A stretch of DNA of 64,000 nucleotides from an uncultured Thermococci archaeon (GCA_964500005.1 CAZCMP010000005.1:77075-141074), one strand, 5' to 3'; counted from the first letter of the stretch, positions 10,249 to 47,486 are shown. Translations and numbers: made by a program. The notes: a model not told the origin generated them from the letters alone.

Positions 10249-11337
10249 TTACAAGGAGTTTACAATTGAGTAGAATGCAGCCCCATATAAACTAACGTTA
10301 TAGTCAAGGATTAAATATACTGGGATAGACTTAAGAACTGCTTTTTGAGTCTGACAATAAATAAATTCATCTGAAAACTCTTTACTTTCAATTAGCCCCT
10401 TATTTTTCATTGCTATACCTCCTGCGATATACACACCCCCCAATGCAAGAGAATCTAAAGCAAAATTTTTTGCGCATCTGCCATAAAACATGCCAAATAG
10501 TCTAAAAGTTTCTCTGCATTTTAGATCTATATTTCTGTATTTTGATATGGCGGGAGGTTTATCCATAGATCTTTCTATTATTTCATCGTATTTTGTTTTT
10601 CCATAATTTCCAGTATTTTTTAAGAATGAGTATATACTCTCTATGCCCTGCCCAGACAATATATCCTCGTATCTTAAGGGGCCTTGAAGATTCTTTTTTT
10701 CTTTTATATAATTAATTAATTCAAATTCAAAAATATCTTTAATAGGAAAATCCGAATGTCCCCCTTCACTAGGAAGGGACTCATATATGCCGTTATGGTT
10801 GTTGAAATAAAGTATTGACTTTCCAAGCCCCGTTCCTGCACCGATAATTGCTTTAGTTTTTTCAAGAGTTTTCTCATTAATTCCTGGCCTAATAACCAAA
10901 ATATCTGCTGGCCGATATTTAATAAGATAATTTATTCCGTAACCTATTGCCTGGAAATCATTTATTATATGGACTATATCTAAACCGGTTTCTTTTTTAA
11001 TTTCATTTATATTGATTTTCCAATTTAAATTTGTTAAATTTATTATATTTTCTTTAATATTCACTCCAGCACATCCAAAACATGAAACTTTAATCTCTAT
11101 AGCATGATTATTTTTAGCAAATTTCAGCATTTCTTTTATAGGATGTATAATTGAGTTAAGTTTTTTGCTATTATAGCGCTTAAAAAACATCAAATAGGGA
11201 ATATTTTCACTTATACCACAAATTCCTATAGTAGTATTGGTCCCTCCAATGTCCGCAACAAGAACATATTTAGAATATAAAAGATTGTTATTTGAAACAT
11301 ATTCTATCTCTATTTCATTTACCAAATGAACACCCAA
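10249..11337 (-). CDS. glk: glucokinase (Glk family)
   Basis: Motifs VADIGGTNT, IINDF, GAGTGLG and EGGH are collinear with E. coli Glk. The start is uncertain, either TTG at 11337 or 11325. Confidence 0.75.
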   Translation of the reverse strand: MGVHLVNEIEIEYVSNNNLLYSKYVLVADIGGTNTTIGICGISENIPYLMFFKRYNSKKLNSIIHPIKEMLKFAKNNHAIEIKVSCFGCAGVNIKENIINLTNLNWKININEIKKETGLDIVHIINDFQAIGYGINYLIKYRPADILVIRPGINEKTLEKTKAIIGAGTGLGKSILYFNNHNGIYESLPSEGGHSDFPIKDIFEFELINYIKEKKNLQGPLRYEDILSGQGIESIYSFLKNTGNYGKTKYDEIIERSMDKPPAISKYRNIDLKCRETFRLFGMFYGRCAKNFALDSLALGGVYIAGGIAMKNKGLIESKEFSDEFIYCQTQKAVLKSIPVYLILDYNVSLYGAAFYSIVNSL

Positions 11338-11448: not shown

Positions 11449-13647
11449 ATGAAAAGATTATTAATAGTTTCAAACAGACTGCCTATTACCATAGAAAAGA
11501 ATAATGAGGGCTTAAATTTTAAGCACAGCGTGGGGGGTCTTGCTACAGGACTTGCATCATTCTATAAAAACTATGATAGCACTTGGATAGGCTGGTGTGG
11601 GCTTTCTTCAGACAAAATAAATATCGATGAAAATAAATATATAAAGTCAAAGTTATTGGAAGAATATCAAAATTACCCAGTTTTTTTATCAAAAAAAGAT
11701 ATTGAACTATATTACAATGGATTTTGTAATAGTACTTTATGGCCACTTTTTCATGGATTCACACAGTATACCGAATATATAAAAAAGAATTGGGAGACTT
11801 ATAAAAGCGTAAACGAGAAGTTCTGTGAAGCCGTATGTGAAATTGCAAATAATGGGGATATAATCTGGATTCATGATTATCATTTAATGCTACTTCCAAA
11901 ACTAATTAGAGAAAAATTGCCCCATACTTCAATAGGATTCTTCTTACATATTCCATTCCCTTCTTTTGAGATCTATAGGCTACTGCCATGGAGAAGAGAT
12001 ATCCTTGAAGGGATTCTTGAAGCTGATTTGATTGGGTTTCATATATCTGATTATTCAAGGCATTTCTTATCAGGAGTATTAAGGATATTGGGATTTGAAA
12101 ACGTTGCAGGTAAAGTCTTCACGGGGAAACATTATTCTGAAGTCGATGCATTTCCTATGGGGATAGAGTATGATAAATTTTCAAGTATGGTAAAAGATGA
12201 AAATGTTCAAAAAAAAATAAATGAGATACGGGAGAAAATAGGGGAATATAAAACTATTTTTTCGATAGATAGGCTTGATTATACAAAAGGAATTCTCCAA
12301 AGACTTGAGGCATATGACTATTTTCTCGATAAGTATCCTACTTATAGGGGAAAGGTCGAATTAATTCTTGTAACAGTCCCATCAAGAACTAAAGTTGAGC
12401 ATTATGAAAAACTTAAAAACAAGATTGATGAATATGTTGGAAAAATAAATGGAAAATATGGAAGAGTAAACTGGACGCCAATTAGATATCTATATCGTTA
12501 TATCTCATATTATTCTCTTCTTTCATTGTACAATCTTTCTGATGTAGGATTGATAACCCCCATAAGAGATGGTATGAATTTAATTGCCAAGGAGTTAATA
12601 GCTTCAAAAAATGATGGAAAGGGAGTGCTTATCCTTAGTGAAATGGCCGGTGCTTCAGTTGAACTTGGAGAGGCATTGATAGTTAATCCAAACAATGCAG
12701 AAGAAATTGCAGATGCAATTAAAAAAGGATTGGAAATGCCAATAGATGAACAGATTGAAAGAAATAGAATCATGCAAAAAAGATTAAAAAAATATAATGT
12801 GACAAGATGGGCAGAAGATTTTATAGAAAAACTTGAAGAAGTAAAAAATGAACAGAAAACACTTGAAGTAAAACTTATTCTACCTTCAACTAAAATTGGC
12901 ATGATAAATAGATACAAAAAAAGTGAAAATCGTTTATTCTTGCTCGATTATGATGGAACTTTAGTTCCATTTTCAAATGCACCCCATAAAGCATTACCGG
13001 ATAATGAATTAATTTCTATTCTAAAAAATCTATCAAATGATCCTAAAAATAATGTTGTCATAATAAGTGGGCGCGATAAAAATACTCTTGAGAATTGGTT
13101 TAAAGGTGTCAATTTAAGTATTATAGCTGAGCATGGTGGGCAAATTAAGGAAAAAGGAAGCAATTGGATTTTAACTAAACCAGAGGAAGTAGAATGGAAA
13201 GGAAGAATCTTGCCTTTATTAGAACTGTATGTTGATAGAACGCCGGGATCATTAATCGAAAGTAAGGAACTTTCTCTTGTTTGGCACTATAGAAAAGTAG
13301 ATCCAGAGTTAGCAGCTATACGGTCTAAAGAACTAAAAGCAGCTTTAATGCACCTAACTTCTAATCTAAATGTGGGAGTTTTTGAAGGTAATAAAATTAT
13401 TGAAGTTAAGAATATAAATATAAATAAAGGACATGCGACTTCAAACTGGCTTAATAAAAATAAATGGGATTTTATAGTTACAATTGGAGACGATTTCACA
13501 GATGAAGATATCTTCAAAGTAGTTCCAGAAAATGCATATTCAATAAAGGTAGGTATTGAGCCTTCTCAAGCCAAGTACAATGTTGAATCGTACAAAGAAG
13601 TTAGGATATTACTAAAAGAATTAACCTCTGTAGAATCAAATGATTAG
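11449..13647 (+). CDS. bifunctional trehalose-6-phosphate synthase (GT20) / trehalose-6-phosphate phosphatase (HAD)
   Basis: The N-terminus LIVSNRLP...GGLATGL and GFFLHIPFP are OtsA-like. The C-terminus LFLLDYDGTL and GDDFTDE is an OtsB-like HAD domain. Confidence 0.85.
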   Translation: MKRLLIVSNRLPITIEKNNEGLNFKHSVGGLATGLASFYKNYDSTWIGWCGLSSDKINIDENKYIKSKLLEEYQNYPVFLSKKDIELYYNGFCNSTLWPLFHGFTQYTEYIKKNWETYKSVNEKFCEAVCEIANNGDIIWIHDYHLMLLPKLIREKLPHTSIGFFLHIPFPSFEIYRLLPWRRDILEGILEADLIGFHISDYSRHFLSGVLRILGFENVAGKVFTGKHYSEVDAFPMGIEYDKFSSMVKDENVQKKINEIREKIGEYKTIFSIDRLDYTKGILQRLEAYDYFLDKYPTYRGKVELILVTVPSRTKVEHYEKLKNKIDEYVGKINGKYGRVNWTPIRYLYRYISYYSLLSLYNLSDVGLITPIRDGMNLIAKELIASKNDGKGVLILSEMAGASVELGEALIVNPNNAEEIADAIKKGLEMPIDEQIERNRIMQKRLKKYNVTRWAEDFIEKLEEVKNEQKTLEVKLILPSTKIGMINRYKKSENRLFLLDYDGTLVPFSNAPHKALPDNELISILKNLSNDPKNNVVIISGRDKNTLENWFKGVNLSIIAEHGGQIKEKGSNWILTKPEEVEWKGRILPLLELYVDRTPGSLIESKELSLVWHYRKVDPELAAIRSKELKAALMHLTSNLNVGVFEGNKIIEVKNININKGHATSNWLNKNKWDFIVTIGDDFTDEDIFKVVPENAYSIKVGIEPSQAKYNVESYKEVRILLKELTSVESND

Positions 13648-14403
13648 CCTTCTTTTCATAAGTTTTATTGAAACAAAGAAGAATATTGTAGTTGTAGCTA
13701 AAATCCAGAGTAGACTAGTTACCATGGAAAAACTGTAAACACCCAGTGTTAACGCCCTGTTTATTATAACTATGTGGGCCAAGGGTAGTATGCTTAAAGC
13801 TACGTATTGTATTGCCTCGGGTAAAACTGTCATAGGAAAGAAAGTACCACTGAACAAAAACATGGGAGTAATAAATAGGAAATTTGGGTAGCTTAAAGCA
13901 TCAATTGTCGGGCTTAATGCAGTAAAACACATGGCGATACAGGAAAACAATAACCCTCCAAGAAATGCAAATGGAATAATAAGTAGAGATGATGGCATTT
14001 CGATAACGCCAAATGCCAAGAGTACAGGCAACATTATTGTGGCATAGATAGTGCTCCTAGTTGCACCCCAGAATAATTCCCCAGCAATAACTTCTTCTAT
14101 GGATATTGGGGTGGCTATCATGGCATCAAATGTCTTTAGATAGTACATTCTGACAAATGAGGTATATGTACACTCAAAAAAGGATGCCGTCATTACAGAT
14201 ATTGACACAAGTGCCGGGGCAATGAATTTTGCATATGGAACCCCGTCAACGCTTTCTATAAATCCGCCTAATCCAAATCCTAATGCCAATAGGTATAGAA
14301 TTGGCTCTAAGAAAGGTGGAACAAAATTTAGCTTCCAAGTCTTGACAAATGTTACAATATTTCTTCTCCAAGGTTTCAAAAGTCTATAGCTTAGCCCAAA
14401 CAT
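13636..14403 (-). CDS. ABC-2 type transporter permease
   Basis: It is a six-TM hydrophobic protein directly downstream of the ABC ATPase. Confidence 0.7.
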   Translation of the reverse strand: MFGLSYRLLKPWRRNIVTFVKTWKLNFVPPFLEPILYLLALGFGLGGFIESVDGVPYAKFIAPALVSISVMTASFFECTYTSFVRMYYLKTFDAMIATPISIEEVIAGELFWGATRSTIYATIMLPVLLAFGVIEMPSSLLIIPFAFLGGLLFSCIAMCFTALSPTIDALSYPNFLFITPMFLFSGTFFPMTVLPEAIQYVALSILPLAHIVIINRALTLGVYSFSMVTSLLWILATTTIFFFVSIKLMKRRLII

Positions 14404-14405
14404 AT

Positions 14406-15314
14406 CTATTCCCTTAGTTTTCTCCCCGTTAGTTTCAAAAATACATCTTCAAGTGTTGCAGGTCTTGCCGTGACCCCACTATCCACACACTCTTTGAGTA
14501 TTAGATTAGTTATATCGGATATATTCTCACTGTATACCTCTACATTTTCATTTGCAACTTCGTAGTTAATATTATTTTTTTCTAGACACGCCTTTATCTC
14601 TAGAGTATTTTCTGCTTCTACAATGTGTTCTCCTACATATTTCTTAACAAGTTCTTTTGGAGTTCCTTGAACTAGTATTTCTCCATTGTCCATAATAACA
14701 AGCCTATCGCATAGCTTTGCAGCTTCTTCCATGTAGTGAGTTGTTATTATAACAGTTATTCCTTTTGAGGAAAGATCCTTTAGTTTTTCCCAGATCAGAT
14801 GTCTTGCCTGAGGGTCAAGACCAGTAGTTGGTTCATCCAAAATCAATAGCTTAGGTTCATTAATCATTGCCCTTGCTAGAACAAGCCTCCTTTTCATCCC
14901 ACCAGAAAGTTTTTCCACTGAACTATCCTTTTTTTCCGTTAGTTGAACATATTCGATAAGTTCATTAGCACGTTTCTTTGCTTCATCTATAGGAATGTCA
15001 AAATACCTTGAGTACTGAATAAGGTTTCCAATAACTGAGAAATCGGGGTCAAGATTATCCATCTGAGGAACGACGCCCATAAGCTTCTTTATTTCTTTTT
15101 GATTGTGTTCAACTTCGAGACCAAATACCTTTAGGGCCCCCCCTGTTTTTGGTGAAACACACTGGATTATCTTCATTGTAGTCGTTTTACCTGCCCCATT
15201 TGGTCCTAAAAAGCCAAAAACTTCTCCTTCCTTTACCTCGAAATTGATCTTATTGACTGCTATAATATCACTGAATTTCTTTTCGAGATTTTTGGCTTCG
15301 AGAACTATTGTCAA
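14406..15314 (-). CDS. ABC transporter ATP-binding protein
   Basis: Walker A GPNGAGKTT, the signature LSGGMKRR and Walker B LLILDEPT are present. Confidence 0.85.
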   Translation of the reverse strand: MTIVLEAKNLEKKFSDIIAVNKINFEVKEGEVFGFLGPNGAGKTTTMKIIQCVSPKTGGALKVFGLEVEHNQKEIKKLMGVVPQMDNLDPDFSVIGNLIQYSRYFDIPIDEAKKRANELIEYVQLTEKKDSSVEKLSGGMKRRLVLARAMINEPKLLILDEPTTGLDPQARHLIWEKLKDLSSKGITVIITTHYMEEAAKLCDRLVIMDNGEILVQGTPKELVKKYVGEHIVEAENTLEIKACLEKNNINYEVANENVEVYSENISDITNLILKECVDSGVTARPATLEDVFLKLTGRKLRE

Positions 15315-18398: not shown

Positions 18399-18463
18399 TT
18401 TTGCAATAAATTTACAATAATATATTTCATATAAAATATTTTGAAATAATATTTGCAATTATA

Positions 18464-18479
18464 ACTTGCAATAATTTTA
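18464..18479 (+). promoter_or_regulatory. copy of TTGCAATAATTTTA box + TATA-like element
   Basis: The sequence acttgcaataattttacatttatatat is present here. Confidence 0.25.
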
Positions 18480-18533
18480 CATTTATATATTATTAATAAT
18501 AATGTTTTATATAATTATTGCAATTATTCTTGA

Positions 18534-23418: not shown

Positions 23419-24339
23419 TTAATCTTCCTGATTTTCCTTTAGGATTTTTAATATCTGTGCAATTGGAAGTGAAGGTTTATTTCCTGCTTTTGCCAATCTG
23501 CTTGGATTCCAATTTATTATCTGATTAATTTCTTGGAGGTCGTATTTCATTTTGGCATCTTTATAGTTGTATAGGTCTTGTGCAAGTGCTATGGCATCAT
23601 TGTTGTTAAATGCCATCCCTCCAAAGTGCATTAGGACGACAGTCTGCCCCGGATTAACGGTGACATTCTCCCAACTGTAATTAATATACCCGCTTTCATC
23701 AGAGAACTCCCACAGCGAATCTATTCTGTCAGAACCACCAGGCCCATCCCATACATGAGAAAGAGAAGGGTCATGTGTACCATCGCCATTATCAGTAAGC
23801 TGGTCATACGATACTGCCCAGTAATCGTTTACATCTGCTAATGCATCGCCACTTGAAGTTTTAACAACTCGATTGTTAGAGTCAGAGCCAAAATTTGAAT
23901 ATATCCGCACACCAACTGATATAGGGGATTCTGTGGGATTGTAAAGTATCTCTAAATACCTTACCCAGTTCCGATCTTCAGGGAAGTAAACCTTGCGCCT
24001 AACAATCAGATTAGACATAGTATAATCATCCAAAAAGTATTCTCTGCCATCTGCTTCTGTAGTGTAGTTCTCGCTATCATCGTTATTGTACTGTGGATAA
24101 TCCTTTGGATTTCCGATTCCAACATAAAGGCGGAAAGCATGTTCGTCATATGCATCACGTAAGGATCCATCCTTGCTGTGTGCATCATTAATATGTCCAA
24201 ATTTCGTATCAAAATCATCAAAAATGAAGTCCATAACATCTACGTCAAATTTATCGCCGAAAACAGACGCAATCCCAAACGTACTTACTATAAATAGAAA
24301 GCTTATCAATATCGCCATTATTTTCTTCATAATAATCAC
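23419..24339 (-). CDS. secreted hypothetical protein with conserved C-terminal ILKILKENQED tail
   Basis: It has a signal peptide. There are no recognisable domains. The C-terminal 16 aa are shared with 25720-27084. Confidence 0.55.
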   Translation of the reverse strand: MIIMKKIMAILISFLFIVSTFGIASVFGDKFDVDVMDFIFDDFDTKFGHINDAHSKDGSLRDAYDEHAFRLYVGIGNPKDYPQYNNDDSENYTTEADGREYFLDDYTMSNLIVRRKVYFPEDRNWVRYLEILYNPTESPISVGVRIYSNFGSDSNNRVVKTSSGDALADVNDYWAVSYDQLTDNGDGTHDPSLSHVWDGPGGSDRIDSLWEFSDESGYINYSWENVTVNPGQTVVLMHFGGMAFNNNDAIALAQDLYNYKDAKMKYDLQEINQIINWNPSRLAKAGNKPSLPIAQILKILKENQED

Positions 24340-25719: not shown

Positions 25720-27084
25720 TTATTTTTCTTCGTTTTCCTTTAGGATCTTAATTATCTTATCCACCGGGAGATATTGAGTCTCTGAGCCACCTATAGATGG
25801 GTAGTGGTACCCCATATCTACAGTTCCTCTATCAAATACCCCTTTGACATTTGTCGTAAAACCTGTTGAAAGACTAAGGTTTTTAGCTAAGTCAGAACCA
25901 CTGTCAACACAAGGGCTCAAATTAGAGAGGTAGAATTCCCCTAAGGGCCCTTTGGTGAAAATTGGATCTACAGATATGCATCCTTCACCAGGCTCTACCC
26001 CTCCAAATGCTTGTCCCCAGTTGTCCTTGTTGTTCCAGGAATTAGAATATATAATTGAGTTGAAAAATAATAAGGGGGGTACCCATATGCCGTAAACGGG
26101 TGTTAGGTCATCGCTAGCAGTATTACTGCTTACTATGCAATTTTCAACTGTTATGCCAACACCTATGGCAGAAATTCCATAAACTGATCTTCCGTCAGTA
26201 TAAATATTATTGATGGAATTATTACTAACGGTACAATTGATAATTAAACTGTTTTCCGTTAGATAAGGATTATCCACGTCAAGATTAATACCTTCCAAAT
26301 AAGTTCCCCTTAGGAGCTTATTTCCGCTGATTGAAATATTTTTTATTAAAAAAGGGCTTTTGCCCGCAAGATATACGCCAATTAAGGCCTCCCCATTTTC
26401 TAAAGTGTTATTGTTGACCGTTCCATTTTTTATTGTCCAATTGTTGCCACCCCCAACTACAGGCCTAAATGTAGAAGTAATTTTAAACAAATTTCTGTCA
26501 AATTCAAACCCATCTATCAACCAGTTATTTCCATAGCCTGAAATACCAATAATACGGATTCCATTATAAAAAATATTATCACTCATAGAAACGTTTTTTA
26601 CTGACCAATTGTCTCCTATTCCAAGTATACAAGAAAGATCTCCAGACACAGGAATGACGTCTGTCGTGAGGTCGAATTTACAGTTTTCTATTGTTACATT
26701 GCTTCCCTTAAAGGTAATACCATATAACTGAAAATTTCTTAAACCAAGATTTTTGATTGTTATATCGTTTAGAATCTTATTTGTATAATCATAATTACCT
26801 ATACAAATATCAGATCCTCCTCTACAATCAATTATGGTGTTTAAAGGGTCATCCCCTATTATGGTGACATTTGGATTATTGATTTCGATCCCATTTGGGT
26901 ATGTGCTAATGTCATATGTTCCATAGTGTACATAGACTGTATCCCCCGGTTCTGCTGCACCTATCTTGGCTACAATGTCGTCCCCTGGGTAAACATGTAT
27001 ATTTCCAGCAGAAACTGGATTCAAAAAGATAAGAAAAGCGCCTAAAATAATAAAGACCGTTATAATACTTGATACTTTTTTCAT
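25720..27084 (-). CDS. secreted right-handed parallel beta-helix repeat protein with C-terminal IIKILKENEEK tail
   Basis: It has a signal peptide MKKVSSIITVFIILGAFLIFLNPVSA. It has extensive beta-helix repeats (NN..NN.I....G). It is a paralog-like of 19096-20145. Confidence 0.75.
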   Translation of the reverse strand: MKKVSSIITVFIILGAFLIFLNPVSAGNIHVYPGDDIVAKIGAAEPGDTVYVHYGTYDISTYPNGIEINNPNVTIIGDDPLNTIIDCRGGSDICIGNYDYTNKILNDITIKNLGLRNFQLYGITFKGSNVTIENCKFDLTTDVIPVSGDLSCILGIGDNWSVKNVSMSDNIFYNGIRIIGISGYGNNWLIDGFEFDRNLFKITSTFRPVVGGGNNWTIKNGTVNNNTLENGEALIGVYLAGKSPFLIKNISISGNKLLRGTYLEGINLDVDNPYLTENSLIINCTVSNNSINNIYTDGRSVYGISAIGVGITVENCIVSSNTASDDLTPVYGIWVPPLLFFNSIIYSNSWNNKDNWGQAFGGVEPGEGCISVDPIFTKGPLGEFYLSNLSPCVDSGSDLAKNLSLSTGFTTNVKGVFDRGTVDMGYHYPSIGGSETQYLPVDKIIKILKENEEK

Positions 27085-27176
27085 GAAAAACACCATTATA
27101 ATTGTAAAAATAGATAATCATTAATATTTAAATATTTGCTTAAGTTGAAAAGTAAAATAATTTTGAAAATAAAAAA

Positions 27177-27533: not shown

Positions 27534-27636
27534 TCTATTACCTATTAATCTTTGAATTTACATAAATATAAAGATATGGAAAAAGAAGAAAATAAAGAAA
27601 ATAAAACCTATAAAATAAAAATAAAAAATTAAATTT

Positions 27637-28956
27637 TTATGAGACAACAAAGTCTATTGTGGCAGTGTCAAATACGCCACTTGGCGAGTATGCGACCATT
27701 GTAACCTTGTATGTGCCTGAAGGAACGTTTGAACCCAATGTGAATAATGCAGAGTATGCGCCTATGTTGTGTGCCTTTAGCTTTTGTGTTTCCGGTACAG
27801 TTTGAACTGTGACGCCTTCTGGAAGCCCGTCAAATCTTAACCTTGTGTCGTTTTGTGTAAAGAACCCTCTGTTCTCTACCTGTAGGAACACCTGTTGGCT
27901 ACCGGGGGACATTTCAAATGATGATATGATCTTACCATCTTGGATTACAGTTTCCCCTCCTGGGACTGAGAATGTCTCAATGTCTACCTTTGGGTAGAGT
28001 ATTGTGGCAGGGAGCGATGGATTCGGTTTGCAGTCGTAGCAGCATTTCTGCTCAAGTGAGAATAATAATCGACCTTTTCCCTCGATTGTGATTGTCCTTG
28101 GAACGCCTTGAATCATGACAACATCAGGCATTTGGTCAAAAGGCCTCTCACCATTGTACCAGACAACCATGTGTGGGTAATTATTGGCTAGTACTGCAAA
28201 GCTTCGGACTTCACATGTAGGAAGGCTTAATGGTACGCCGTTTATCACAATTTCTCCACATCCAGCAAATAGCATAATCACATACTCGTTGACATCACAT
28301 TTGTAGTTTGCAGGCATGTTGTATCCGCTGCAATTTGTTGCACATTCAAGTGAAGGGTTGCTTCCACACCCCCTCATGTCAAAGCAACAGCTATTTATCA
28401 GCTTTCTATCCTCTGAACTAAAATCCCCTTCGCCAGCACACGGTGGAGGCTCATTAAAGAATGTTCTGGAGTCGTTGCATGATGGAACATTGATAACCAA
28501 TGATTTAATTTCTGCTCCACCCACATATTCAAAGTATGATTGTTTACCATATAGATAACATTCAGAGCTTTCACAACTTTCAAGGCATTGATTAAAAAAT
28601 GGCATATCGCCACAAGATTCATAGCAGTAAGCTAAGCATGACTGTGTGGATTTTGGCATATTTACACATAATAGATCCCTTGCATAGCATCCTTTCACAT
28701 TGCTAATGTATATCTCCATCCAGTAAGGATGGAACCATCTTTGTTGGCACTCAAAAAAAGCATTGTATGAGCAGTCATCACATGGATCATATTGGTCAAC
28801 TGTTTGAGGTTGAGAACACGACTTCATGCAATCATTGAAGATGCATTCTTGACATCCCGAAGGAAGAGTATCTTCGCATGGTTCTTGTGAACTTGCAATA
28901 GAAAAACTTGCTATTCCCATAAGGAAAACTATAGTTAAAGCTAATATTTTTTTCAT
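27637..28956 (-). CDS. cysteine-rich secreted protein with C-terminal Ig-like/CARDB-like beta-sandwich domain (paralog A)
   Basis: It has a signal peptide MKKILALTIVFLMGIASFSIASS. More than 40 Cys lie in the N-terminal two-thirds. The C-terminal ~170 aa are ~95% identical to 45926-47329. Confidence 0.75.
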   Translation of the reverse strand: MKKILALTIVFLMGIASFSIASSQEPCEDTLPSGCQECIFNDCMKSCSQPQTVDQYDPCDDCSYNAFFECQQRWFHPYWMEIYISNVKGCYARDLLCVNMPKSTQSCLAYCYESCGDMPFFNQCLESCESSECYLYGKQSYFEYVGGAEIKSLVINVPSCNDSRTFFNEPPPCAGEGDFSSEDRKLINSCCFDMRGCGSNPSLECATNCSGYNMPANYKCDVNEYVIMLFAGCGEIVINGVPLSLPTCEVRSFAVLANNYPHMVVWYNGERPFDQMPDVVMIQGVPRTITIEGKGRLLFSLEQKCCYDCKPNPSLPATILYPKVDIETFSVPGGETVIQDGKIISSFEMSPGSQQVFLQVENRGFFTQNDTRLRFDGLPEGVTVQTVPETQKLKAHNIGAYSALFTLGSNVPSGTYKVTMVAYSPSGVFDTATIDFVVS

Positions 28957-28964
28957 ATTTTACA

Positions 28965-28976
28965 CTATCCGGATAG
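28965..28976. promoter_or_regulatory. perfect 12-bp palindrome CTATCCGGATAG in conserved 5' leader (also at 47338-47349)
   Basis: It is identical in sequence and position (9-20 nt upstream of ATG) in both Cys-rich paralogs. Confidence 0.4.
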
Positions 28977-29082
28977 TGACTACTAATGTAGTCTCATATT
29001 ATAAGATAATTATATTATATATCCCTTTTGGTAAAACCACGCACTTAGTTGATTATAAAAAAGTCTGAAATAAAAAATAAAT

Positions 29083-37667: not shown

Positions 37668-38006
37668 ATGTATGGTGAAAGAAGAGGGGCACGTGATAGG
37701 CCTCCTCGTGAAATGCATAAAGTGGTTTGTCAAGAATGCGGACAAGAAACTGAAGTCCCATTCGAGCCAGATGGTACAAGACCTGTTTACTGCAAAGAAT
37801 GCTTCCAGAAAAAGAATCCAAGAAGAGGGGAAGGTAGGCCCCATCGTGGCGGAAGAATGGGTGGGCGTGATAGGCCTCCCCGTGAAATGCATAAGACAGT
37901 TTGTCAAGAATGCGGACAAGAAACTGAAGTCCCATTCGAGCCAGATGGTACAAAACCTGTTTATTGCAAAGAATGCTTCCAGAAAAAGAAACCAAGAAGA
38001 TTCTAA
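37668..38006 (+). CDS. tandemly duplicated C4 zinc-ribbon protein with Arg/Gly-rich linkers
   Basis: It has two copies of RDRPPREMHK.VCQECGQETEVPFEPDGT.PVYCKECFQKK. A GGAG-like SD is upstream. The three overlapping ORFs in this interval are rejected as repeat artefacts. Confidence 0.6.
   Translation: MYGERRGARDRPPREMHKVVCQECGQETEVPFEPDGTRPVYCKECFQKKNPRRGEGRPHRGGRMGGRDRPPREMHKTVCQECGQETEVPFEPDGTKPVYCKECFQKKKPRRF
37692..38003. repeat. 174-bp tandem direct repeat (1.8 copies) inside the zinc-ribbon gene
   Basis: Copies 37692-37865 and 37866-38003 are more than 95% identical at the nucleotide level. Confidence 0.8.
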
Positions 38007-45470: not shown

Positions 45471-45854
45471 CTAGTTTAATAACACCAAGAAAAGTCCAAT
45501 TCCAACAATTAAGAAGATCATGCTTAATATTAACAACTTTCTCATCATTTTAAATTGAGCCATGGTCTTGGGTTTACTTAATCCTCCAAAAGAAACGGCC
45601 ATTGAGAGTCCTATCCCTATTCCTGCTGGGATACCCAACGCTAGATTATTGAATGTGACTTGCCCATATATTAATCCCAATGCAACACCTATTACCAACC
45701 ACACTAGCATTGGTTTTGTAAATCCTACTCGTTCTGGGATTAAAGATTCTTTATCCTCTCTTATAGGAATTCGGATAAGGGACAATAAGATATAAACGCC
45801 CATGATTATAACAAACGCACCCACCATCAAAGAAACGTCTTGAATATCTATCAT
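45471..45854 (-). CDS. hypothetical membrane protein
   Basis: It has 3-4 TM helices. Confidence 0.4.
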   Translation of the reverse strand: MIDIQDVSLMVGAFVIIMGVYILLSLIRIPIREDKESLIPERVGFTKPMLVWLVIGVALGLIYGQVTFNNLALGIPAGIGIGLSMAVSFGGLSKPKTMAQFKMMRKLLILSMIFLIVGIGLFLVLLN

Positions 45855-45925: not shown

Positions 45926-47329
45926 TTAGGGGACAACAAAGTCTATTGTGGCCGTGTCAAACACGCCGCTTGACGAGTATGCGACCATTGTAACCTTGTA
46001 TGTGCCTGAAGGAACGTTTGAACCCAATGTGAATAATGCAGAGTATGTGCCTATATTGTGTGCCTTTAGCTTTTGTGTTGCTGGGGTTGTTTCAACTGTG
46101 ACGCCTTCTGGAAGCCCGTCAAATCTTAACCTTGTGTCGTTTTGTGTGAAGAACCCTCTGTTCTCTACCTGTAGGAATACCTGTTGGCTACCGGGGGACA
46201 TTTCAAATGAGGACAGTATTTTACCATCTTGGATTACTGTTGTGCCTCCTGGGACTGAGAATGTCTCAATGTCGACCTTTGGGTAAAGGATTGTGGCAGG
46301 GAGCGATGGTTTCGGCTTGCAGTCGTAGCAGCACTTTTGTTCAAGTGAAAATTCTAGATAACCGTCTCCTTCGATTGTAATTGTCCTTGGAACGCCTTGA
46401 ATCATAACAACGCCGGGTGTTGGGTCAAAAGGCCTCTCACCATTGTACCAGACAATATAATTTGTACATGTGTATCCATTCAAAGCTGCGCTTACATCTT
46501 GCGTACATGAATCATAAGGTATTCCGTTTATTTTAACTCCGCCTCCATAAATAAGTTTCATGATGACGTACTCGTTGACATCACATTTGTAGTTTGCAGG
46601 CATGTTGTATCCGCTGCAATTTGTTGCACATTCAAGTGAAGGGTTGCTTCCGCATCCTCTCATGTCAAAGCAACACCCCTCTATAATAATAGGTTCAATA
46701 TCATTGAGTATTTGTACTTCCTTATTAATAAAGTCTTCATCACTAGTGTCTGTTTCAAATACCCTCCCACACGGCGGGGGGCTTTGGAAGAATGTTCTGG
46801 AGTCGTTGCATGATGGAACTTTAATAATCAAAGGTGGATTTGTGCCCCCTTTGGGGTCTATCTGTTGTAAAGGGTACTCTATATGTAAAGGTTCTCTGTA
46901 TAAATAACAAGTGGCACTGTCAAAACATCCATCCATACATTCGTCATAGTGCTCAACATCGGCACAAATTTTATTACATGCATCTTCTGGGTAGTATTGA
47001 TTTTCAACTAAATCATTGATACACAGCAGATCCCTTGCATAGCACCCTTTCACATTGCCATCGTATATCTCCATCCAGTAAGGATGGAACCATCTTTTTT
47101 GACACTCAAAGAAAGATCTGATTGAGCAGTCACAGGGGCCATATCCATTTAGGGATTCTAAGTCTAGCTCAGGAGATTCAGAACACCACTTAATACAATC
47201 ATTGAAAAAGCATTCTTGGCATTGCGAAGGTGGTGTGTACCCAAATAAGCATGGATTTTGAGAACTCACAATAGAAACACTGGCTATTCCCATAAGGAAA
47301 ACTATAGTTAAAGCTAATATTTTTTTCAT
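45926..47329 (-). CDS. cysteine-rich secreted protein with C-terminal beta-sandwich domain (paralog B)
   Basis: The signal peptide MKKILALTIVFLMGIAS is identical to paralog A. The conserved C-terminal ~170 aa are shared. The track start at 47338 is GTG. The ATG at 47329 matches the start of paralog A. Confidence 0.75.
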   Translation of the reverse strand: MKKILALTIVFLMGIASVSIVSSQNPCLFGYTPPSQCQECFFNDCIKWCSESPELDLESLNGYGPCDCSIRSFFECQKRWFHPYWMEIYDGNVKGCYARDLLCINDLVENQYYPEDACNKICADVEHYDECMDGCFDSATCYLYREPLHIEYPLQQIDPKGGTNPPLIIKVPSCNDSRTFFQSPPPCGRVFETDTSDEDFINKEVQILNDIEPIIIEGCCFDMRGCGSNPSLECATNCSGYNMPANYKCDVNEYVIMKLIYGGGVKINGIPYDSCTQDVSAALNGYTCTNYIVWYNGERPFDPTPGVVMIQGVPRTITIEGDGYLEFSLEQKCCYDCKPKPSLPATILYPKVDIETFSVPGGTTVIQDGKILSSFEMSPGSQQVFLQVENRGFFTQNDTRLRFDGLPEGVTVETTPATQKLKAHNIGTYSALFTLGSNVPSGTYKVTMVAYSSSGVFDTATIDFVVP

Positions 47330-47486
47330 ATTTTTCACTATCCGGATAGTGACTACTAATGTAGTCTAATTTTACTGAGATTTAGACTATTTATCTCTTT
47401 TGGTATATCTAACAAAATTTTAGGAAGTTAGCGATAGAAAAATTAGATATAATTATAAACTTCAACTGAACGGATAATATGTTAAA

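Follow-up and report, generated by a model that had tools for sequence, protein, structure and literature searches.

How two genes of one archaeal genome can be near-identical over some segments and unalignable over others is the question raised by genes A and B, which were examined in a 64,000-nt stretch of an uncultured Thermococci archaeon assembly (GCA_964500005.1; CAZCMP010000005.1, coordinates 77075 to 141074). This whole stretch, referred to here as the window, is AT-rich (33% G+C), and positions are counted from its first letter. The answer that we favour, with moderate confidence, is that A and B are complete paralogs, each with its own predicted promoter, belonging to a family found almost only in Methanofastidiosum, and that they encode secreted, Cys-rich two-domain proteins with a variable head and a conserved tail that have been reshuffled by recombination.

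Both open reading frames were found intact at the positions where they had been predicted, and both lie on the minus strand.

27637-28956, minus strand: gene A, type-I member of the family; intact open reading frame encoding an acidic, 439-amino acid (aa) protein with 29 Cys that is predicted to be secreted
45926-47329, minus strand: gene B, type-I paralog; intact open reading frame encoding 467 aa with 28 Cys

The reading frame of B continues upstream to a GTG at 47338, and the ATG at 47329 is preferred as the start because a conserved 5' hairpin element (see below) overlaps the extension. The two proteins share 68% identity with 32 gap positions (BLASTP, E=0), and A and B were the only copies found in the 64-kb window using tblastn and blastn, both full-length, with no partial copies. 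Both proteins contain the blocks WFHPYWMEIY, KGCYARDLLC, VPSCNDSRTFF and CCFDMRGCGSNPSLECATNCSGYNMPANYKCDVNEYVIM, as the original prediction had stated, and both end in TATIDFVV followed by one final residue (S in A and P in B). The long shared block begins at CCFDM, preceded by S in A and by G in B. Three details of that prediction needed correction. The Cys counts given above replace a figure of more than 40, and the signal peptides, described as identical, are near-identical, with residues 1-17 the same, F18V and A21V inside the peptide and E25N just after it. The C-terminal ~170 aa, put at ~95% identity, include 17 differences in the last 177 aa (90%) and nine in the last 130 aa (93%). The claim of a mosaic was borne out in 60-nt sliding windows, where the DNA identity of A and B is not uniform and alternates between ~30-50% (unalignable) and 90-98%, and the ~80 nt preceding the ATG are likewise similar between the two genes. 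No tandem repeats were found in or beside A and B.

The segments into which the two proteins can be divided are as follows.

28021-28881, minus strand: Cys-rich N-terminal head of A, residues 26-312
28660-28758 (C1), 28441-28485 (C2), 28273-28392 (C3) and 28021-28170 (C4), minus strand: scaffold blocks of the A head
28759-28881 (V1), 28486-28659 (V2), 28393-28440 (V3) and 28171-28272 (V4), minus strand: variable segments of the A head
27640-27996, minus strand: C-terminal domain (CTD, here the tail) of A, 119 aa, from YPKVDIE to the last residue
45929-46285, minus strand: CTD of B, 119 aa, 93% identical to the CTD of A

Two processes, purifying selection and recombination, account for the mosaic. 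In 24 type-I proteins, with identities as low as 37%, the protein blocks that A and B have in common vary little or not at all. As they are invariant family-wide, members that are only 37-50% identical included, much of the mosaic seen at the protein level is a framework of constant blocks and variable loops shaped by purifying selection. These blocks are therefore not in themselves the signature of recombination or gene conversion between paralogs for which they had been taken. However, this part of the claim was borne out along four independent lines, namely heterogeneous synonymous divergence, a test for recombination, shifting nearest neighbours and a tract in a sister strain. Synonymous divergence (dS, Nei-Gojobori) was 0.23-0.64 in the conserved blocks (pooled 0.33; tail 0.23) and ranged from 0.86 to saturation in V1-V4, a contrast between blocks of at least six-fold, and the proportion of synonymous differences at codons for identical amino acids was ~17% in conserved versus ~39% in variable segments. 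The variable segments may have been imported from divergent alleles.

The pairwise homoplasy index (PHI) test, applied to codon-aligned DNA of ten type-I genes, gave an observed value of 0.310 versus a permutation mean of 0.369 +/- 0.004 (p<=0.001). The nearest neighbour also shifts along the gene, at both the DNA and the protein level. Residues 194-224 of B (A numbering) are 97% identical to A, whereas residues 225-280 are 83-87% identical to the locus-A gene of another species (L003) and 53-67% identical to A. The V3 segment of A is 94% identical to P0004. In a neighbour-joining tree of tails, those of the window clade were placed apart from other type-I tails (bootstrap 1-3%) and beside those of types II, VII and IX, a position that points to a whole tail having been swapped in from another subtype.

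A recent event was identified in a sister strain recovered from another sample. The contig of this strain (L001), which includes locus B and its neighbours, matches the window at 10,304 of 10,321 nt. Of the 17 mismatches, six are found in the final 56 nt of the contig, and the remaining 11 fall inside 131 bp of the B tail.

46048-46178, minus strand: minimal gene-conversion tract, in which L001 has the A base at 11 of 11 A/B-informative sites

The length of the tract is between 131 and 237 bp, the maximal span (45974-46210) being bounded by the nearest informative sites with B bases. These sequences are most simply read as an ectopic gene conversion in the L001 strain with A as the donor and B as the recipient, a direction assigned by parsimony, that took place so recently that the remaining 10 kb gained no point mutation. 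On this reading, short-tract gene conversion between paralogs predicted to be expressed is documented in an archaeon, and because the event was caught between strains otherwise identical over 10 kb, it suggests that conversion outpaces point mutation here.

The tail was examined separately from the head. From YPKVDIE to the last residue it was exactly 119 aa long in 56 proteins, with no insertions or deletions and identities of 57-100%, and the N-terminal parts of these proteins sort into nine or more unrelated types. The tail is also carried, in these genomes, by ten or more further secreted architectures, beta-helix, cadherin-like/Big_9, FG-GAP and beta-propeller proteins included, and in the distant tail proteins a Sec signal peptide is followed by a beta-helix, by FG-GAP with Big_9/cadherin-like domains or by an SBBP/NHL propeller. 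In all strong matches the tail ends at the last residue of the protein, except in fragments cut at the end of a contig. Some same-tail proteins have a lipobox-like signal peptide.

The exact protein of A is present in a public collection as P0001, where it is unannotated, and the named homologs of A are annotated as 'hypothetical protein' of Candidatus Methanofastidiosum. A scan with the tail motif of one genome per GTDB species revealed 45 loci, three to five per genome, with 42 of the 45 in metagenome-assembled genomes (MAGs) labelled Methanofastidiosum, Thermococci or Methanobacteriota. The remaining three were in bacterial-labelled MAGs, two on contigs of ~2.5 kb and one on a 685-kb contig, for which mis-binning or mislabelling is possible. 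The last of these (L012; CAWDRB010000027.1, 685 kb), labelled 'uncultured delta proteobacterium', has its tail match in a truncated frame; either this MAG is mislabelled or the tail truly occurs outside Methanofastidiosum. Tail matches in truncated or very short frames, which may be pseudogenes or assembly frameshifts, were seen at L009, L012, L023, L038, L048 and L049. When a profile of the tail was compared with 1.84 billion cluster representatives, 98 were matched at E<=0.001 and 38 at E<=1e-30, and the three tail clusters that bear names are from Methanofastidiosum.

No curated family for A or B was found in Pfam (E<=0.01), NCBIfam or the PDB sequences. The tail had been described as a CARDB/Ig-like beta-sandwich. 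At the level of the fold this agrees with structure prediction, which models the tail as an Ig-like (E-set) domain, but CARDB itself was absent even when 13 tail sequences were compared with Pfam at E<=10, where the matches were sub-threshold (TcfC at 0.002, and NPCBM_assoc at 0.12 in one member). Mean tail identity was 0.85 for the same type in different genomes, and between different types it was 0.646 in the same genome and 0.639 in different genomes. General concerted evolution of the tail across subtypes was rejected, as cross-type identity is equal within and between genomes. As tail identity follows type and not genome, the conservation across types is attributable to purifying selection. 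Because the tail is a strictly terminal, indel-free domain common to cargos of adhesin type, it would be a module for retention in the cell envelope, sorting or assembly. Full-text searches of the literature gave no result for these proteins or for the envelope of Methanofastidiosum.

The head follows a predicted secretion signal and joins the tail at a conserved Cys motif.

28882-28956, minus strand: signal-peptide region of A (MKKILALTIVFLMGIASFSIASSQE), containing the sole 19-mer with a Kyte-Doolittle mean above 2; the cleavage site is putative
47255-47329, minus strand: signal-peptide region of B, equivalent to that of A
28030-28044 (A) and 46319-46333 (B), minus strand: CCYDC motif at the junction of the head and the C-terminal domain, with C4, C5 and C8 invariant in a 13-sequence alignment

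The 13 aligned C-terminal regions, in all of which the pattern CC-x-x-C is kept just ahead of the tail, belong to proteins of several N-terminal types. Kyte-Doolittle maxima beyond the signal peptide are 1.69 (A) and 1.05 (B), and there is no other hydrophobic 19-mer and no C-terminal anchor. The mature chain is acidic, with 48 D+E versus 27 K+R. AlphaFold2 modelling with the family alignment gave a mean predicted local distance difference test score (pLDDT) of 77.9 for the whole protein, and of 82.4 for residues 25-312 alone, with a predicted template modelling score (pTM) of 0.80. In the model of the head, helical hairpins with paired Cys are packed against a beta-sandwich with a long beta-ribbon, and V3 and part of V4 fall on low-confidence loops. 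As modelled, the head (~290 aa) is a fold without a known relative, and no match to it was found in a viral structure library.

A further feature common to A and B was found upstream of the coding regions.

28963-28993, minus strand: twin-hairpin 5' leader of A, 31 nt, GACTAC-ATTA-GTAGTC and then the palindrome CACTATCC/GGATAGTG
47336-47366, minus strand: twin-hairpin 5' leader of B, identical to the A element (0 matches expected by chance)
29015-29029, minus strand: box of A (AAAAGGGATATATAA) resembling a transcription factor B recognition element (BRE) and TATA box, by sequence pattern only
47387-47401, minus strand: BRE/TATA-like box of B (AAAAGAGATAAATAG), likewise a sequence pattern

The leader is directly upstream of the ATG in A and B and was conserved at each of the 11 additional type-I loci inspected (L001-L007, L050-L052). 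At L004 it is retained though the protein is 51% identical to A and the rest of the upstream region is unalignable. Upstream of the non-type-I subtypes the leader was absent, and ordinary GGAGG/GGTG ribosome-binding sites were found there. The few substitutions in the leader are located in the loops, or in the 5' arm where G-U pairs arise, a pattern that favours RNA hairpins over a DNA operator, though the sample is small. The predicted fold of the leader RNA has an energy of -9.2 kcal/mol (z -2.3), and its 3' arm covers a weak Shine-Dalgarno-like GTGA. Rfam gave no match for the leader, nor for anywhere in the window, and a metagenome scan with the leader motif identified three further loci. 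The BRE/TATA-like box begins 72-73 nt before the ATG, is conserved in the type-I upstream alignment and is a putative promoter; judging from its position, the mRNA would carry the hairpins at its 5' end. The leader probably sets the stability of the mRNA or the translation of the type-I subtype.

The family diverges faster than the genes around it. The ortholog of A in L003, from another species, is syntenic and flanked by RDD and DUF1801 genes, and its product is 58% identical to that of A, whereas six flanking proteins are 86-92% identical. Syntenic copies of B are found in L001 (99.8% nt identity), L002 and L051. In a comparison of locus B with P0003, B was 67% identical and the 127-aa membrane protein downstream 98%. 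The original prediction of a variable surface protein is thus plausible in view of the Sec signal, the acidic chain, the fast divergence at a syntenic position and the presence of the tail on adhesin-type architectures, the surface location being itself inferred from these features.

Paralogy, the mosaic, recombination, the distribution of the family and, at the level of models, the folds are shown by these data, whereas the surface location and the roles of the tail, the Cys and the leader are proposals. In the mechanism that we propose, the tail would hold the protein in the cell envelope, or assemble it there, and the head would be the exposed part that determines interactions. The scaffold blocks and the tail are kept by strong purifying selection. 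Variation comes from frequent homologous recombination, both short-tract ectopic gene conversion between A and B in one genome and a cassette-like trade in V segments with alleles of other loci, strains and species, and in one episode the whole tail appears to have been replaced by that of another subtype. Viruses, partners or substrates could exert the pressure under which such turnover diversifies a protein exposed at the surface.

A bolder extension of this reading can be put forward tentatively, as something possible that we would not expect to hold in full. The tail would serve as an address tag, comparable in function with S-layer homology (SLH) domains or the CTD of the type IX secretion system (T9SS), by which an undescribed archaeal system sorts, anchors or assembles surface proteins, and Methanofastidiosum would present a repertoire of heads on it. 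The type-I heads, with their new fold, would be a hypervariable receptor or adhesin diversified by frequent gene conversion inside the genome under a new twin-hairpin leader RNA. In either form, the family provides a handle on the Methanofastidiosum envelope, through the terminal domain borne by many of its secreted proteins and through a head without a known fold. If the tail is indeed an anchoring or sorting tag, it would aid genome annotation and guide the labelling or enrichment of the organism.

Several points weigh against the favoured reading. Positive selection was not demonstrated, pairwise dN/dS being below 1 in every segment, though the variable segments are saturated. No conserved partner gene for the tail, either a receptor or a processing enzyme, was found, and loci A and B have no neighbouring genes in common. 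Disulfides are uncertain in a strictly anaerobic, sulfidic habitat. The conversion tract is known from two metagenome assemblies, which makes a chimera possible, and its A/B-identical flanks are 32 nt and 74 nt long.

A and B could instead encode structural subunits of the envelope (S-layer, sheath or fibre), in which the tail polymerises, the Cys cross-link the subunits and the variation is a by-product of forming the outermost layer. However, many different heads are found on the same tail in a genome, some of them with a lipobox-like signal peptide, which fits accessory surface proteins better, and similarities to Ena and capsid proteins were at noise level. We consider this alternative unlikely. 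High abundance of the proteins would favour a structural layer, and low abundance accessory adhesins.

Metagenome assembly might also have formed a chimera between repeats, which would account for the recent tract and possibly for some of the near-identity of the tails, recombination then being ancient and not ongoing. The window and L001 both come from metagenomes, and the exact tail runs beside the tract, up to the 74 nt noted above, are enough for a de Bruijn repeat node. However, the A/B run on the 5' side of the tract is short enough to make a double assembly switch unlikely. The larger default k values of SPAdes-type assemblers are 33- and 55-mers, which exceed this 32-nt run, though the settings of the assembly may differ. 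Furthermore, other mosaic junctions are present in independent assemblies or alleles (L002, L005, L051, P0003 and P0004). A chimera is, in our judgement, quite improbable as the source of the tract.

The head could also be an extracellular metal- or thiol-binding module, concerned with trace-metal capture or the handling of methylated sulfur, and not a disulfide-stabilised recognition domain. Methanofastidiosum, a methanogen of digesters and sediments that has yet to be cultured, is strictly anaerobic and reduces methylated thiols, and its habitat is not known to offer oxidising conditions for disulfides. The 28-29 Cys of A and B include CxxC, Cx3C and CC motifs, and the total in A is odd. However, the heme motif CxxCH was not visible in the translations of A and B, and no Pfam or NCBIfam family was matched. 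The number of Cys among proteins with the same tail varies from 1 to 35, and the ~19 Cys positions conserved in the family, in a pattern of paired helices and strands, suit structural staples. We regard a binding module as very improbable.

That there was no recombination at all, and that the mosaic arose by unequal constraint along one old duplicate with a conserved scaffold and tail and drifting loops, is barely credible, as the family-wide invariance of the A/B blocks, the conservation of the tail in all subtypes without concerted evolution and a dN/dS below 1 throughout would be accounted for, but not the contrast in dS, the rejection of a single tree by PHI, the changes of nearest neighbour or the 11 paralog-derived bases on the otherwise identical 10-kb background of L001.

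Other features of the window and of the corresponding regions were recorded. The gene immediately downstream of B (45471-45854, minus strand) encodes the 127-aa membrane protein, a multi-pass one that is 98-100% conserved in L001 and L002. It was found at locus B only and not beside any of the other family members examined, and as it is locus-B-specific it was rejected as a conserved partner of the family. Two neighbours of gene A (25720-27096 and 23419-24339, both minus strand) encode proteins with a signal peptide and a common ending (...LPVDKIIKILKENEEK and ...LPIAQILKILKENQED), which may be a second shared C-terminal tag. One of the two is beta-helix-like and the other is without a Pfam family, and both secreted proteins evolve fast, with 70% and 61% identity to their L003 counterparts. 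Just past the beta-helix gene at locus A of L003 (coordinates 13420 to 14970) is a second family member, P0030, of 516 aa and 38% identical to A. Other genes occupy this position in the window, which means that species differ in how many family genes they have and in where these are located.

A GC-rich stretch at 37668-38006 (plus strand; up to 0.50 compared with 0.33 in the window) has open frames on both strands, and one frame encodes a tandemly duplicated CxxC...CxxC zinc-ribbon unit (CQECGQETEVPFEPDGT.PVYCKECF) with Arg-rich linkers. At 18401-18527, between genes, is an AT-rich tandem repeat made up of two copies of a 65-bp unit (81% matches). No tRNA genes were found in the window.

A and B were also compared with known systems. 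Matches to HAP2/GCS1 and Fsx1 prompted a fusexin reading, which was rejected, as they involve only the generic Ig-like domain III, many unrelated Ig-like domains score equally, the head has no match to domains I/II and there is no C-terminal transmembrane anchor. A substrate of the PGF-CTERM/archaeosortase type was rejected, as the proteins end in ...TATIDFVVS and ...TATIDFVVP with no C-terminal hydrophobic helix. A diversity-generating retroelement was also rejected, as the differences in the tract are of several base types (A/G, T/C, C/G, T/A and A/C) and the variable segments differ by insertions and deletions; the search of the window for a reverse transcriptase was not exhaustive. The short-tract, non-reciprocal transfer seen in L001 recalls the silent-cassette antigenic variation of pilE/pilS and vlsE, but this model was rejected, as both copies are full-length with a box and leader and the window holds no partial copies.

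The E-set Ig-like fold is common to the tail of A and B, CARDB (PF07705) and NEW3 (PF10633, NPCBM_assoc), but the tail is below every curated threshold and is a single, terminal, indel-free copy and not a tandem array. A parallel in architecture, though not in membership, is the Por_Secre_tail of the T9SS of Bacteroidota, where many secreted cargos of a single lineage, otherwise unrelated, likewise end in an Ig-like beta-sandwich. Unlike domains of that type (PF18962/TIGR04183), A, B and the tail alignment have no Pfam or NCBIfam match, and the host is an archaeon; archaea are not known to have an outer membrane.

The Opa proteins of Neisseria are encoded by expressed surface-protein genes at multiple loci, with a conserved framework and hypervariable loops that are reshuffled by inter-locus recombination. 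They have no kinship in sequence or fold with A and B. Opa proteins are outer-membrane beta-barrels, whereas A and B are soluble secreted proteins of an archaeal host, and no phase-variable coding repeat was found in A and B. However, A and B resemble the Opa system in having several complete paralogs per genome with their own (here predicted) promoters, in the alternation of scaffold and hypervariable segments, and in the exchange of short tracts between loci and strains.

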